Source of the DNA: an uncultured Pelagibacteraceae bacterium
GTDB lineage: Bacteria > Pseudomonadota > Alphaproteobacteria > Pelagibacterales > AG-422-B15
Direction of reading: 5' to 3'
Assembly (NCBI GenBank): GCA_902578305.1
Contig: CACHCK010000003.1
Span: forward strand, 66,492 to 130,491
DNA: 64,000 nt
Below the pieces are notes generated by a model, which saw only the letters and a list, made by a program, of their open reading frames with translations, was not told the DNA's origin and made no database searches. Positions 8,710 through 22,383 of the stretch are shown here, one piece after another. Each line of letters begins with the position of its first letter. Within the stretch, counting starts at the first letter, position 1. The translations under genes and the position numbers were made by a program.

Positions 8710-9045
8710 TTATAATGCGTCCGAACCAGTCTCGCCTGTACGAATTCTCATAACTGTTTCAATGTTAGAAACAAATATTTTACCATCACCAATACGATTT
8801 GTGTTTGCTGAAGCCCTAATCGCTTCGACGGCCGTATCGACAAGATCATCTTGTAAGATTATTTCTAATCTAATTTTCGGAAGAAAATCACCATATTCAA
8901 CACCAGTGTTAACTTCAGTAAAACCTCTTTGTCTACCTAAGCCTTTGGCTTCAGATATAGTGATCCCACGCACCCCAACTTTTTCAAGTGCTTCTTTTAC
9001 ATCATCTATCTTAAATGGCTTTATGACAGCTTCGATTTTTTTCAT
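8710..9045 (-). CDS. glnB: P-II nitrogen regulatory protein with a divergent T-loop
   Basis: MKKIEAVIKPFK, GRQ37-39, Y51, LPK, IGDGKIF, RIRTGE; 111 aa; located upstream of glnA. Confidence 0.93.
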   Translation of the reverse strand: MKKIEAVIKPFKIDDVKEALEKVGVRGITISEAKGLGRQRGFTEVNTGVEYGDFLPKIRLEIILQDDLVDTAVEAIRASANTNRIGDGKIFVSNIETVMRIRTGETGSDAL

Positions 9046-9104
9046 TATGAGTTAACTCTTAAGTTTTATACATTAATTTTCTGAAAGAAGTTAAAATTAA
9101 TGAT

Positions 9105-9164
9105 AGAATGTATATATAATGTTTTTATGCCAAATTGACATATAGATTTAATTATAAGTATAGG
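9105..9164. promoter_or_regulatory. Putative back-to-back sigma70 promoters for glnB (-) and nnr (+)
   Basis: Minus strand TTGGCA(9133-9128)-N17-CATTCT; plus strand TTGACA(9135-9140)-N18-TATAGG. Pattern match only, in AT-rich DNA. Confidence 0.3.
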
Positions 9165-9217
9165 TAAATTTTACATATCTTTATTTAAAACATGCACTTA
9201 TAGGCGATTTCTAATAA

Positions 9218-10702
9218 ATGACTCAATACATCCTTAGTAATAAAGAAATGGCAAAGGCAGACCTTTTAACTATTGAATCTGGTATTTCTAGTTTGGATCT
9301 GATGTTTAACGCAGGAAAGAAAGTTTTCAACAATCTTCCTGTTCAAAGAGGTAAAAGGGCGCTCTTTATTTGTGGTCCGGGAAATAACGGTGGCGATGGC
9401 TATGTTGCAGCTGACCTTATTTTAAAGCAAGGTATGGAAATTGATATTTATTGCCCTATTAGTAAAGCCAAGGAAAGTAATGACAATTTACATTATAAAC
9501 AAAAACTTAATAAATCATTATTTGTTTCCAAAATAAGAAGTTTATCAAATTATTGTTATGTAGTAGACGCTTTATTTGGTACAGGGTTATCAAGGAGAAT
9601 GTCAGATGATTTAAGTTCTTTGGTTAGTAAAATTAATCAATCTAAATTAGATGTTTTCTCCGTAGATATTCCATCTGGCATTAATGGCGATACATCTGCT
9701 GTTCTTGGAGAAGCTTTTAAAGCTTCAAAAACAATTACTTTTTTTAATAAAAAAAAATGTCATTATTTGTACCCTGGAAAAAAATATTGTGGAGAAATAG
9801 TAGTTGAGGATATTGGAATTAAAAAAAACGTATTAGATCAAATTATGCCAAATATAAAAAAAAATGATCCATCATTATGGATTAAGAATTTTCCATTTCC
9901 AGTTTCAAGTGATCATAAATATTCAAGAGGAATGCTTGTAATTAATACTGGTCCTCAATTTCAAACTGGAGCAGCTCGATTAGCTGGTCGATCAGCTATG
10001 CGCGTTGGGGCAGGAGCAGTAACAATGGTCTGCGATGAAGAAACAGCAAAAATATTAGAACCACAAATCTCAGTTGAATTACTATCAGTGATAAAAGAAA
10101 AAAACGATTTTCAAAAACTTTTAAAAGACAAAAGAGTTTCAAGTGTCCTCATAGGTCCTGGAAATGGAGTAAATGATGAAACAAAAGCAAGAACTTTAAT
10201 GGCACTGGCTTTTGTGGATCATTGTGTAATTGATGCAGACGCAATTACATGTTTTGAAAATAATCCAAAAGAATTATTTATAGATACTTATCCGCATACA
10301 ATACTCACACCTCATGAAGGTGAATTTAAAAGATTATTTGGTGAAGGTATCGCGTTAATGGAAGATAAAGTACTCAAGTGTGTTGAGGCAGCCAAATTAG
10401 CAGGAAGTATAGTTTTACTCAAAGGCGCTGATACAGTTATTGCTGATCCTGAAGGGAATGTTGTAATAAATGCAAGCGAAGCTCCATATCTAGCAACCGC
10501 AGGATCAGGTGATGTTCTTGCTGGAATCATCGCTTCACTTGTTGGAGATAATAAGATGAATGCTTTTGATGCGACTTGCGCTGGAGCATATATTCACTCA
10601 AAACTTGGAGAAATGATAGGCCCCGGGCTAATTGCAGAGGATCTTATTGACAACATTCCCCTGATGATTAAAAAGCTGCATTCGTATGTTGAGGAAAATT
10701 AA
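9218..10702 (+). CDS. nnr: Bifunctional NAD(P)HX epimerase/dehydratase
   Basis: CGPGNNGGDG, VDALFGTG, VDIPSG (YjeF_N); HKYSRG, TGAARLA, IDADA, LTPHEGEF, LLKGADT, LATAGSGDVLAG. Confidence 0.93.
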   Translation: MTQYILSNKEMAKADLLTIESGISSLDLMFNAGKKVFNNLPVQRGKRALFICGPGNNGGDGYVAADLILKQGMEIDIYCPISKAKESNDNLHYKQKLNKSLFVSKIRSLSNYCYVVDALFGTGLSRRMSDDLSSLVSKINQSKLDVFSVDIPSGINGDTSAVLGEAFKASKTITFFNKKKCHYLYPGKKYCGEIVVEDIGIKKNVLDQIMPNIKKNDPSLWIKNFPFPVSSDHKYSRGMLVINTGPQFQTGAARLAGRSAMRVGAGAVTMVCDEETAKILEPQISVELLSVIKEKNDFQKLLKDKRVSSVLIGPGNGVNDETKARTLMALAFVDHCVIDADAITCFENNPKELFIDTYPHTILTPHEGEFKRLFGEGIALMEDKVLKCVEAAKLAGSIVLLKGADTVIADPEGNVVINASEAPYLATAGSGDVLAGIIASLVGDNKMNAFDATCAGAYIHSKLGEMIGPGLIAEDLIDNIPLMIKKLHSYVEEN

Positions 10703-12530
10703 TAAAATATCATTACTTCTAATTCTTTTTCTTACACTTTGTTTGAATATAAGTTTTGCAGAAGACCAGATATATACATTTAAATCCAAAAACACTGATT
10801 TCATTGGATCAGTAGCAAAAGAAAAAGATGGTTCAAAAACTATTTCTTTTGTCGGTATTCCCTTTGCAAAGCCTCCAGTTGATGACTTAAGATGGAAAGC
10901 TCCAAGAGAATTAGATCTGATGCCTGATACATTTGAAGCCACAACATTACCTAATAGGTGCATGCAAGTTAGTAATTTTTATGACTCAATGGATGGCATT
11001 GAGGGAGGTTCAATAATTGGATCTGAGGACTGTCTTTATTTAAATATTTATCTGTCAGAAAAGGCATACAATAGTAAAAAGAAATTGCCAGTCATGTTTT
11101 GGATACACGGAGGTGGAAATACGTGGGGTTATTCAGCTTCAAACTTGTATACTTCAGGTGATTTCATAATGGAACATGATGTAATTTTAGTCACAACAAA
11201 CTATAGATTAGGTCCTTTTGGATGGTTTGCCTTCAGCGGTCTAAATGAAGACTCAAATAATGAACTTGATCAAAGTGCAAATTTTGGAACTCTCGATATT
11301 ATAAAATCACTTGAGTGGGTTAATGAGAATATTTCAAATTTTAATGGTGACCCAAATAATATTACTATTTTCGGTGAGTCTGCTGGAGCTAGAAATGTAA
11401 TTTCACTTATGACTTCACCTTTAAGTGAAGACTTGTTTCAAAGAGGAATTTCTCAAAGCGGTTACCTTGGCTCAGACTCTTTAGACTTTGCAGAAAATAA
11501 TGAAAGAGCGGGATCAAAAAGTTTATTAAGACACTTAATCAAATCAAAGAACACATCAATATCTGATGAGGAGATTTCAAATTTCATGAGCAATCAGATG
11601 CTTTCTGTCGACCTTTTAAGAACTGCAGATGCAAACGATATTATATCATATTATAGGCCAAGACCTGATGCAGCTGGATTAATTGATGTCCCGAATGTAA
11701 TACCTGATGGAGTAGTAATTCCAAATAAGGGAATTTATGGAGCTTATAGAGATGGTGATATGTATGACAAACCTATGATATTTGGTTCGACACGAGATGA
11801 AGATAAACTGTTTATGTTTATGAACGATGAATATGTAAATAGGCCATTATCTTTTTTAAGTCCAATCTCGGAATATCTTGATTTATATGTAAAACCCAAA
11901 GATCCAAAGTATTATGATATCTATGCTAAATACATGGCAGAGTCATGGAAATATGGGGCAGTAGACCTACCTTCAGACTTTACATCAAATTACAAAAAAT
12001 CAAATGTATATGCTTATCGATTTGATTGGGATGAACAAAATGTCTATTTAGGTGTTGATTTGCCCAATCTACTAGGCGCTGCACATGGAATGGAGTTAGC
12101 ATTTATTTTTAAATCAGATGGTTTATTAGGTGAGAGCTCAGATGCGATAAATGACATAATGTATAATGAAAATAACAGGTCCACTGATTTAGAGCTCTCT
12201 ACAAAAATGGGACAATATTGGGTAAATTTTGCTTACGATGGTAATCCAAATAGCGCCCCTTATGATATGTCTACCGAGTGGAAACCATGGAATAAATTAA
12301 ATAACAACGAAAGGTTTATCGTATTTGACTCTGTTAACGATAAGGGCATTGCAATGTTTAATAATACTTTATCGGCAAATTCAATTCTTCAAGGAATATC
12401 CAGTGAGAGCATAACTGTTGATCAAAAGTGCAATATAATTGATAAAATGTTTAATAGAACAACTCTTACTGACGAGGAAGTGGATGAAATTTACAGAACC
12501 TTTATGAGCGGTAAGTGCACTAGAGCCTAA
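10686..12530 (+). CDS. Secreted type-B carboxylesterase/lipase family protein
   Basis: Signal peptide MLRKINKISLLLILFLTLCLNISFA; GIPFAKPP, EDCLYLNI, WIHGGGN, NYRLGPFG, nucleophile FGESAG, acid in STRDED, His in AAHGMEL. Confidence 0.88.
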   Translation: MLRKINKISLLLILFLTLCLNISFAEDQIYTFKSKNTDFIGSVAKEKDGSKTISFVGIPFAKPPVDDLRWKAPRELDLMPDTFEATTLPNRCMQVSNFYDSMDGIEGGSIIGSEDCLYLNIYLSEKAYNSKKKLPVMFWIHGGGNTWGYSASNLYTSGDFIMEHDVILVTTNYRLGPFGWFAFSGLNEDSNNELDQSANFGTLDIIKSLEWVNENISNFNGDPNNITIFGESAGARNVISLMTSPLSEDLFQRGISQSGYLGSDSLDFAENNERAGSKSLLRHLIKSKNTSISDEEISNFMSNQMLSVDLLRTADANDIISYYRPRPDAAGLIDVPNVIPDGVVIPNKGIYGAYRDGDMYDKPMIFGSTRDEDKLFMFMNDEYVNRPLSFLSPISEYLDLYVKPKDPKYYDIYAKYMAESWKYGAVDLPSDFTSNYKKSNVYAYRFDWDEQNVYLGVDLPNLLGAAHGMELAFIFKSDGLLGESSDAINDIMYNENNRSTDLELSTKMGQYWVNFAYDGNPNSAPYDMSTEWKPWNKLNNNERFIVFDSVNDKGIAMFNNTLSANSILQGISSESITVDQKCNIIDKMFNRTTLTDEEVDEIYRTFMSGKCTRA

Positions 12531-12745
12531 ACTTTATTTAGCTTAACTTTATAGTCATCAACGATAGTTATTTCCTGAATACCATCAATGTGCATCTTAA
12601 ATTTCTTATATTCTTCTTTTTCTTTCACTTTTTCTCGAGCTTCTTTTTCATCTCTTGCACAGACAAAGATATTGGTGTGCCCTTCGTAAAAGCCATCTGA
12701 AATATTAGGATCATAAAAACCTGTATGGACTTGAAACAATTTCAT
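12527..12745 (-). CDS. DUF1543-like small protein
   Basis: 72 aa with E-H-x-x-F-V-x-A and MHIDGIQEITIVDDYKV, resembling DUF1543; fills the gap between flanking genes. Confidence 0.65.
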   Translation of the reverse strand: MKLFQVHTGFYDPNISDGFYEGHTNIFVCARDEKEAREKVKEKEEYKKFKMHIDGIQEITIVDDYKVKLNKV

Positions 12746-20868: not shown

Positions 20869-22383
20869 ATGATTTACTGCCGCTACATAAAAAATACTCT
20901 ATATGCTCTTATGATGTTTGGCATAATTTTGACTGCTCAAGTTCATGCAAGTGAATTTAAAGTTGGCTTTGCTAAGATGCCGATCACCCCTAATCTAATT
21001 GATGAATGGGAAGATATAAATAATGATGCTCAATTTGATGCAGATATTGATAAGTGGACTGATATAAATGGCAATGGTCGATTTGATGCAGTGTGGATGG
21101 CTGGTTTTCAAAATAAACGAGCTGCCCAAGGTATTAAAGATGATTTGATGTCCGTAGCCGTTGTAATAGATGATGGCCAGACACGAATAGGTATCATAAG
21201 TGCTGATACAATAGGGTTAATGCGAAAATTTGTAATCAGTGTCCGTGAGGATGTTCCTGCTGATTGGGGCCTAGATTACATTATGGTCCACGCAACACAT
21301 AATCATGAAGGCCCAGATACTCAAGGTCTTTGGGGCCCGAGTTTTTTAAAAAGTGGTGTCAACGATGCCTATATGAAGCGGCTTAAAAAAGATTTTATAA
21401 GCACATTAAAGATGGCGATTGATAACTTAGAGGCTGCAGAAATGAGTTTGGCTTTAATTCCGACTAATCCACTTACCCCTATTAAAGATAAACGAAGACC
21501 TATCGTTATAGATGATGATATAAGGGCAATTTTATTCAATCGCCCTGACGGCTCAATTATTGGTTCTTTAATCAATTTCGGAATTCATGTCGAGCTTGCA
21601 TGGGATAAAAACTTAGACATAACCTCTGATGTTGCTGGCTACTTAAGAAAAGGTATCAGTCATGGAATTTATTATGATGACAAGTTAATTAAACCTGGTC
21701 TTGGCGGAACCACGCTATGGCTTACAGGAAATATAGGAGGCTTGATGACATCAGGGCCAACCGATCCAATTTATGATCCTGTTTTGGAAAAAATGATTAC
21801 TAAACCAAGTCATACTAAAGCTCGCGCATATGGTTATAGCCTTGCAAACAGTGTTATAGAGGCATTTCAAGCAGGCGATTTTAAGACTTCTCCTAAGCCA
21901 TCACTAAGTATCCAATCACAAGAAATAGAATTAGGTATAGAAAACTTGATGCTCTCATTTGGCACTTTGCTTGGTATAATTGATGCTGATACTAAATTCA
22001 GTCTGAGGCCACCATTTATACGTTATCTAAGTGAGGTAGCATTCATACAAATAGGAGATGCATCTATTACTGGAATTCCTGGAGAGCTTTATCCAGAAAT
22101 TGCTATCGGTGGCATTGAAAACCCTAAAGGAGCTGATTATGTTATTGCGCCACAAGAAGTTCCAAATTTACGAAGTCAATTTCCAGACAAACTGAACTTG
22201 ATGGTGAATTTAGCAAATGACTCAATCGGTTACATCATCCCAAAAAGTGAGTGGGACGATGACGCTCCTTGGATCTATGGAGAAAGTGAAGAAACATATG
22301 GCGAGGTAGTGTCCTTGGGCCCAGATACGGCAACAGTGATTCACGAAAATATCATTAAGTTGATAGAAGAGTCAGAAAAATAA
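20869..22383 (+). CDS. Secreted neutral/alkaline ceramidase-like Zn amidohydrolase
   Basis: Signal peptide ending AQVHA; VGFAKMPITP, HATHNHEGPD, INFGIHVE, IPGELYPE, NLANDSIGYI, the motif set of the ceramidase N-terminal domain. Substrate is not established. Confidence 0.7.
   Translation: MIYCRYIKNTLYALMMFGIILTAQVHASEFKVGFAKMPITPNLIDEWEDINNDAQFDADIDKWTDINGNGRFDAVWMAGFQNKRAAQGIKDDLMSVAVVIDDGQTRIGIISADTIGLMRKFVISVREDVPADWGLDYIMVHATHNHEGPDTQGLWGPSFLKSGVNDAYMKRLKKDFISTLKMAIDNLEAAEMSLALIPTNPLTPIKDKRRPIVIDDDIRAILFNRPDGSIIGSLINFGIHVELAWDKNLDITSDVAGYLRKGISHGIYYDDKLIKPGLGGTTLWLTGNIGGLMTSGPTDPIYDPVLEKMITKPSHTKARAYGYSLANSVIEAFQAGDFKTSPKPSLSIQSQEIELGIENLMLSFGTLLGIIDADTKFSLRPPFIRYLSEVAFIQIGDASITGIPGELYPEIAIGGIENPKGADYVIAPQEVPNLRSQFPDKLNLMVNLANDSIGYIIPKSEWDDDAPWIYGESEETYGEVVSLGPDTATVIHENIIKLIEESEK

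Follow-up and report, generated by a model that had tools for sequence, protein, structure and literature searches.

SAR11 is the most abundant heterotroph of the ocean and the textbook free-living case of a nitrogen regulation said to do without P-II. Smith et al. 2013 (PMC3870248) found none of glnB, glnK, glnD, ntrB and ntrC in the subclade Ia genomes that they examined and no ntrBC in the eight SAR11-clade genomes that they examined, recovered an adjacent P-II gene on none of 137 GOS glnA fragments, and described the nitrogen response of SAR11 as P-II-independent. The same study reports that glnB beside glnA is the ancestral alphaproteobacterial arrangement and that HTCC1062 carries GSI and two GSIII genes, with no GSII. 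Lanclos et al. 2023 (PMC10030771) then reported glnB in about half of the IIIa genomes and in most LD12 genomes, glnD in no SAR11 genome and glnB as missing from other SAR11, and considered the role of glnB unclear.

P-II proteins are homotrimers whose effectors bind in the clefts between subunits. P-II is able to act unmodified, as illustrated by a GlnK Y51A variant that is still nitrogen-responsive, and it is retained unmodified in streamlined or derived systems such as Prochlorococcus and plants, the modifiable Ser49 being kept in Prochlorococcus though it is unphosphorylated (PMC4285133). E. coli GlnK, known in complex with AmtB (PDB 2NUU/2NS1), is likewise a member of the family able to act without covalent modification. 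In M. mazei, GlnK1 (PDB 8TGE; PMC10651883) is a P-II protein of an organism that has no GlnD and is functionally linked to glutamine synthetase (GS), and its T-loop binds a non-classical target.

Here we describe a P-II gene in a 64-kb stretch of marine SAR11 DNA, referred to as the window and comprising the whole of the sequence analysed. Its product is probably an orphan GlnB with a re-specified, SAR11-specific T-loop, and it is encoded together with a type II (eukaryote-like) and a type I GS, termed GSII and GSI (Table 1). With E. coli GlnB (PDB 2PII/1PIL) and alphaproteobacterial glnBA it shares 57-58% identity, the fold, the ligand residues, the B-loop, the RIRTGE motif and the location upstream of glnA, whereas the protein is one residue shorter than E. 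coli GlnB and the tip of its loop reads NTGVEYG instead of YRGAEYVV. It departs from proteobacterial GlnB also in failing the uridylylation motif and the NCBIfam cutoff, in the GSII gene that lies between glnB and glnA, and in the reported absence of GlnD and NtrB from SAR11 (PMC10030771, PMC3870248). The window protein differs from GlnK in not being amtB-linked, in the replacement of R47 by T and in a score below the equivalog cutoff. From GlnK1, which is archaeal and only distantly similar (E 1e-21), it differs in an unrelated T-loop sequence and in the near-absence of GS co-variation with loop type. The orphan glnB of IIIa/LD12 resembles it as a P-II in glnD-less SAR11; compared by its description (PMC10030771), however, that gene belongs to brackish and freshwater subclades and T-loop changes are not described for it, whereas the window is marine and three loop variants are found. 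Whereas Prochlorococcus keeps Ser49, in SAR11 it is the loop itself that has been rewritten, and two of its three types have no Tyr51.

The notion of a P-II-free SAR11 rests on subclade Ia cultures and on the read-level metagenome search (0/137), and the window qualifies it, in that widespread SAR11 lineages are shown to keep P-II in the glnBA slot. It also contradicts the statement that glnB is missing outside IIIa/LD12; whether that survey (PMC10030771) covered the lineage of the window is doubtful. The GSII gene, which places roughly 1 kb between P-II and glnA, may have hidden P-II from a read-level search for neighbours. No description of a P-II-GSII-GSI operon or of T-loop variants in marine SAR11 was found in the literature.

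Table 1. Features of the P-II locus, in window coordinates
Feature	Position	Strand	Basis or remark
P-II gene (glnB orthologue by synteny), 111 aa	8710..9045	(-)	ORF; Pfam; PDB matches; AF2/Foldseek
T-loop codons, residues 37-54 (GRQRGFTEVNTGVEYGDF); rewritten, one residue shorter than canonical	8884..8937	(-)	Translation, alignments, purifying selection
Type II (eukaryote-like) glutamine synthetase, GSII, 326 aa	7708..8688	(-)	21 nt downstream of P-II
Type I glutamine synthetase, GSI (glnA), 469 aa	6277..7686	(-)	21 nt downstream of GSII; TIGR00653
Divergent intergenic region P-II / YjeF/Nnr; presumed promoter region of P-II-GSII-GSI	9046..9217	.	Gene layout; 11-lineage alignment
Conserved motif TGTCA-N3-TGGCA (13 nt) upstream of P-II	9128..9140	(-)	Alignment of 11 SAR11 lineages

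The P-II protein and its operon

The window P-II matches PF00543 at 105.9 bits (cutoff 25) over residues 1-105 of its 111, and solved GlnB, GlnK and GlnZ structures match it with E values of about 1e-37. An AF2 model of the monomer has a mean pLDDT of 87.2, with values of 61-72 in the T-loop, and shows strands at residues 2-8, 29-33, 57-64 and 88-94 and helices at residues 10-22 and 66-80. The fold is thereby predicted to be the canonical ferredoxin-like beta-alpha-beta-beta-alpha-beta arrangement with T-, B- and C-loops, and all of the top 50 Foldseek matches to the model are P-II proteins (TM 0.77-0.84). The protein scores below the NCBIfam equivalog cutoffs for both GlnB (NF008111, 141.1 bits against 202) and GlnK (NF007946, 124.5 bits against 181). 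Exactly this protein is found on at least 1000 contigs and in 3472 blocks of the collection. Some of the contigs are longer than 1 Mb (ENA ERZ28548082 lagoon_1 contig_8952, 1.16 Mb; ERZ28548087 mcSweeney_3 contig_9370, 1.34 Mb), and many independent single-cell genomes are among its sources, AG-891-J04 and AG-901-G03 included, which rules out an assembly error or sequencing artefact as the origin of the shortened loop. The first-pass annotation had named assembly error as one way in which its reading of the loop could fail.

The spacing of 21 nt between successive genes makes P-II-GSII-GSI an operon. GSII matches the Pfam Gln-synt_N/C families; its NCBIfam GlnII match is highly significant in E value (2e-102) but, at 342.7 bits, remains below the 500-bit cutoff, and the closest solved structures are the GSII enzymes of yeast, maize and S. 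coelicolor. GSI, which belongs to the GSI-beta type and is an ordinary GlnA, scores 647.6 bits against the TIGR00653 cutoff of 429. Because P-II occupies the ancestral glnBA position upstream of glnA, it is identified by synteny as the GlnB orthologue, behind which the GSII gene has been inserted. The adenylylation-loop motif of GSI (DLYEL with its Tyr, in residues about 385-412) is invariant across SAR11 lineages and flanked by segments that vary, which raises the question of a GlnE adenylyltransferase in the P-II-bearing genomes.

The T-loop and the ligand-binding core

In HMMER alignments to the P-II proteins of E. coli (GlnB, 1pil/2pii), H. seropedicae and N. meningitidis, the loop of the window protein shows K40R, H42F, Y46N, R47T and A49V, and also F36L, L45V and V52/53G, together with a one-residue gap directly after Y51. 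Translation and alignments bear out in every particular the T-loop substitutions, the deletion after Y51 and the length of 111 aa that the first-pass annotation had given. The replaced segment is the distal T-loop (residues 42-54), that is, the partner-contact surface; K40R is a conservative change, and position 36, F in canonical proteins, is L in the type A protein of the window, R in type B and Y in type C (loop types as defined below). The change consists of point substitutions and a 3-nt deletion. A nitrogen-saving or AT-bias cause of the substitutions was rejected by inspection, as K40R adds nitrogen and K40R and A49V do not raise AT.

The remainder of the functional sequence is kept. 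The window protein retains Q39, Y51, K58 (K57 in its own numbering), the IGDGKIF B-loop, R101/R103 (own R100/R102) and RIRTGE, and in an alignment of SAR11 and canonical P-II the positions G27, T29, G35, G37, R38, Q39, G41, K58, I86-K90, R101 and R103 are invariant. Judged from the alignments, the residues that bind ATP/ADP and Mg-ATP/2-oxoglutarate are thus all present in the window P-II, and the earlier claim of an intact effector-binding core with Q39, Y51, K58, the GDGK of the B-loop and R101/R103 is confirmed to this extent. Two regular expressions separate core from loop. The B-loop signature [ST]-x3-G-[DY]-G-[KR]-[IV]-[FW]-[LIVM], which we take to be PROSITE PS00638, is matched by loop types A, B and C, whereas the uridylylation-site motif Y-[KR]-G-[AS]-[AE]-Y, presumably PROSITE PS00496, is passed by E. 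coli GlnB and failed by all three types, which read N-T-G-V-E-Y in the window, NTGVEF in type B and FRGSEH in type C.

How unusual such a loop is can be seen from a library of 1.84 billion proteins clustered at 50% identity, from which the best 150 representatives were compared. The exact canonical 24-residue loop is present in 102 of these 150, in agreement with its earlier description as near-invariant, and every loop found among them is 24 residues long except for a single one of SAR11 type, which has 23. The SAR11 type being the only shortened loop among these 150 nearest representatives, the variant is not a common feature of ordinary GlnB proteins, an alternative that the first-pass annotation had allowed for. 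Compared across phyla, canonical P-II proteins share 75-95% identity in the T-loop (residues 36-55) and 53-63% elsewhere; between the window P-II and canonical proteins the corresponding values are 55% and 58-66%, so that the relation of loop to body is inverted.

Loop types and their distribution in SAR11

Relatives' loci were taken from one genome for each of 185,579 species, and the close relatives fall into three types according to residues 36-55. Type A, found in the window and in L001-L033, reads LGRQRGFTE[VI]NTGVEYGDF in proteins of 111 aa, with Y51 kept and R47T. Type B (L034-L038) reads RGRQRGFTEMNTGVEFGDF, also in 111 aa, and carries Y51F. Type C (L039-L042) reads YGRQKGKEEIFRGSEHL[IN]DF in 112 aa, with Y51H and R47 kept. 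Types A and B thus share T at position 47 and the shorter loop, and type C has the full loop length. All non-SAR11 matches (L043-L080) have the canonical loop.

The close relatives L001-L042 are single-cell and metagenome-assembled genomes (SAGs and MAGs) of Pelagibacteraceae/Pelagibacterales (SAR11), the sole other label being Halieaceae at L033. The P-II of that locus (CAXEVD010000013.1, a Halieaceae MAG) is identical to that of the SAR11 locus L032 and its YjeF is of SAR11 type; the contig probably belongs to SAR11 and was misbinned into the gammaproteobacterial MAG. With L033 taken as misbinned, the variant loop appears to be confined to SAR11 among one genome for each of the 185,579 species and the 150 nearest representatives. 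P-II is retained by a minority of Pelagibacteraceae lineages, some of them abundant. Two 182-aa metagenomic proteins (P0008 and P0165) combine a SAR11-type P-II with an extra N-terminal, partial P-II-like stretch, with PF10126 also annotated; the extra stretch may come from a tandem duplication, from a wrongly called start or from a chimeric assembly.

Since types B and C carry Y51F and Y51H in the same slot, Tyr51 is dispensable, and its replacement in these types agrees with glnD being reported absent from SAR11 (PMC10030771). The earlier emphasis on a retained Y51 is correct for the window and type A but misleading for the family, as the sister lineages have lost the residue.

Between SAR11 lineages the loop is the fastest-changing segment of the protein, identity between types A and C being 45% there and 75% over the remaining residues. 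P-II is itself the fastest-evolving protein of the operon between SAR11 lineages, with 66-70% identity between types A and C against 85-92% for GSI and GSII; such rapid divergence is out of the ordinary for P-II, which normally ranks with the most conserved families. GSI similarity groups type B with type C (89-91%), whereas the P-II loop groups it with type A and YjeF also places it nearer type A. Recombination inside the locus could account for this conflict, and so could poor resolution. No claim of loop recombination between lineages is made, the GSI tree giving B+C, the loop B+A, and YjeF and the acyl-CoA dehydrogenase (ACAD) mixed signals.

Gene order is largely constant around these loops. 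A divergent YjeF/Nnr gene, P-II, GSII, GSI and ACAD follow one another over the 42 loci L001-L042, with exceptions that concern GSII and GSI. GSII is absent and GSI directly follows P-II in L029, where the type A loop is identical, and in L040 and L041 of type C; type C neighbours include both enzymes in L039, GSI only in L040/L041 and GSII only in L042. Co-occurrence with glnII, suggested by the first-pass annotation, therefore holds for most P-II genes and fails for those at L029, L040 and L041. Across SAR11 lineages the GSII gene comes and goes between P-II and glnA with clean junctions. A search for amtB, glnD, glnE and ntrBC found none of them within the 64-kb window or the relatives' 20-kb loci (42 loci).

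Selection on the loop

Within the lineages the rewritten loop hardly varies. In its codons, pS reaches 0.4-0.9 within types A and B, near saturation, against pN of 0-0.10; the 13 distinct type A proteins encoded by 32 species-level genomes differ at one of 19 loop positions (V45I) versus 29 of 92 elsewhere; and 90 of 120 metagenomic clusters carry the identical loop. By these substitution patterns the rewritten loop is fixed and under strong purifying selection rather than decaying, and within its lineage it is now the most conserved part of P-II. The contrary reading, in which P-II is vestigial and functionless and its loop drifts, or in which the loop results from a compensated frameshift or a sequencing artefact, can draw on the fast divergence of P-II relative to the neighbouring GS genes (A versus C, above) and on the loss of the gene from most SAR11 genomes (PMC3870248). 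Against it stand a loop peptide that is unchanged while synonymous sites approach saturation and the fact that, within type A, the loop is the least variable segment. The residues T43, E44, G48, E50, Y51, D and F are in register in the alignment, which rules out a compensated frameshift, and the same sequence recurs on the at least 1000 contigs mentioned above. We consider the vestigial or artefactual reading highly improbable.

Proposed function and candidate partners

Taken together, a SAR11 P-II with an intact ligand core probably signals to a non-standard target. We think it rather likely that this protein is the SAR11 orthologue of alphaproteobacterial GlnB acting as a modification-free sensor of 2-oxoglutarate and ATP/ADP, its loop having been re-specified after the loss of GlnD and NtrB towards a reduced, non-canonical set of partners. 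According to this proposal, the loss of GlnD and NtrB/NtrC in SAR11 would have lifted the multi-partner constraint by which the loop is kept near-invariant elsewhere, and the freed loop would then have been re-specified, in the order, as we infer it, of partner loss followed by rewriting. P-II would work without covalent modification as a direct sensor of 2-oxoglutarate and adenylate charge, and ligand-dependent conformations of the T-loop would switch its binding to the reduced, non-canonical partner set.

The earlier statement that this P-II no longer addresses canonical partners is plausible in the light of the failed uridylylation motif, the absence of R47 and the F or H at position 51 in sister lineages, while its genomic part, the absence of the partners, is taken from the literature (PMC10030771, PMC3870248). 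Those surveys concern other or pooled SAR11 genomes, which weakens the case for an absence of GlnD, GlnE and NtrBC in P-II-bearing genomes. A counterpoint to an orphan sensor is that DLYEL is kept in the GSI of all lineages, which would fit a retained GlnE that P-II might address.

As to the identity of the target, the rewritten T-loop could bind the co-transcribed GSII and/or GSI directly and stimulate or repress their activity in response to 2-oxoglutarate and ATP/ADP, in the manner of archaeal GlnK1 and its GS. The operon is tight and conserved across SAR11 lineages, the GlnK1 T-loops of M. mazei insert between GS subunits (PMC10651883), PDB 8tge is found among the sequence matches of the window P-II, and such a mechanism would need neither GlnD nor GlnE. 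However, since glnB-glnA adjacency is ancestral in Alphaproteobacteria (PMC3870248), the neighbourhood of P-II and GS is uninformative and implies no physical interaction. Moreover, an identical type A loop at L029 has no GSII beside it, nor has type C at L040/L041, GSI is missing at L042, and loops that are 45% identical accompany enzymes that are nearly unchanged: among positions fixed within each group, the split of A+B from C is followed by only two in GSI (T76L and V422L) and by none in GSII. The split of B+C from A is followed by nine positions of GSI. Direct binding of a GS is in our view unlikely, and GSII in particular, proposed as the new target in the first-pass annotation, is not supported, given the identical loop at L029 without GSII, the lack of loop-type substitutions in GSII and the ancestral adjacency.

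More doubtful still is a GlnK-type regulation of the SAR11 Amt ammonium transporters through the modified loop. In the E. coli GlnK-AmtB structures R47 serves as the pore plug, and with T47 and a shorter loop plugging of an Amt pore by R47 is impossible for types A and B; in addition, no amt gene is present in the window or the 42 loci, and the score of the protein lies below the GlnK equivalog cutoff. These points outweigh, to our mind, that no pairing of the family is older or more widespread than P-II/Amt, which requires no covalent modification (PMC4285133), that SAR11 genomes hold several amt paralogues (PMC3870248), and that type C keeps both R47 and the full length. A similarly slim chance is given to one canonical job being left, in which P-II modulates a retained GlnE acting on GSI and responds to 2-oxoglutarate only, as GlnD is absent. 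The GSI-beta enzyme with its invariant DLYEL between varying flanks and the glnBA position of P-II speak for such a role. Mutagenesis of E. coli PII has implicated T-loop residues around 46-51 in receptor contacts, but these contact residues are changed here, and Y51 is F or H in the sister lineages.

Returning to the GlnB orthologue with a re-specified loop, it may be, although we lean against so far-reaching a version, that the abundant SAR11 of the tropical ocean are not P-II-independent and run a minimal modification-free circuit, in which the rewritten T-loop docks on a target that no characterised P-II addresses, either a GS, as the bacterial equivalent of the archaeal GlnK1-GS pair, or a SAR11-specific protein. 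If true, the three loop types would represent lineage-specific re-wirings of nitrogen control. The locus offers a natural experiment, with GlnD and NtrB reported as lost, the T-loop rewritten in three ways and the ligand core unchanged, by which the constraints that hold the loop constant can be dissected, and it points to a further output partner in a globally important organism.

Upstream region and neighbouring genes

In the upstream alignment, no block conserved over loop types A, B and C is longer than the TGTCA-N3-TGGCA motif. The 64-kb window contains one exact copy, although matches with one mismatch are no commoner than expected by chance, and the motif could serve as operator or -35 element of the P-II-GSII-GSI operon. 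A sigma-54 promoter at the TGGCA block is not claimed, as the GC expected at -12 is missing by eye in the upstream alignment. Scans with promoter and terminator consensus sequences were uninformative, promoter-like sites being fewer than in shuffled sequence, and no riboswitch or known RNA was matched in the operon or its leader with Rfam at gathering thresholds or at E<=1.

The window as a whole has a GC content of 32.9%, and its remainder is devoted to housekeeping genes (trigger factor, ClpPX, Lon, the nuo operon, dnaE, rpsB-tsf-pyrH, bamA-lpxD-fabZ-lpxA, gltA, lexA and trpC). Three further reading frames deserve mention. A 72-aa ORF at 12527-12745 (-) is called in all four of four related long contigs and belongs to no Pfam family, and a 504-aa ORF at 20869-22383 (+) has a weak, sub-threshold match to the N-terminal domain of neutral/alkaline ceramidase (21 bits against a cutoff of 32). 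At 10686-12530 (+), a 614-aa carboxylesterase of the COesterase family with a hydrophobic N-terminus is encoded; its start overlaps the end of YjeF/Nnr by 17 nt, and the same gene is called shorter (595 aa) in two related contigs.
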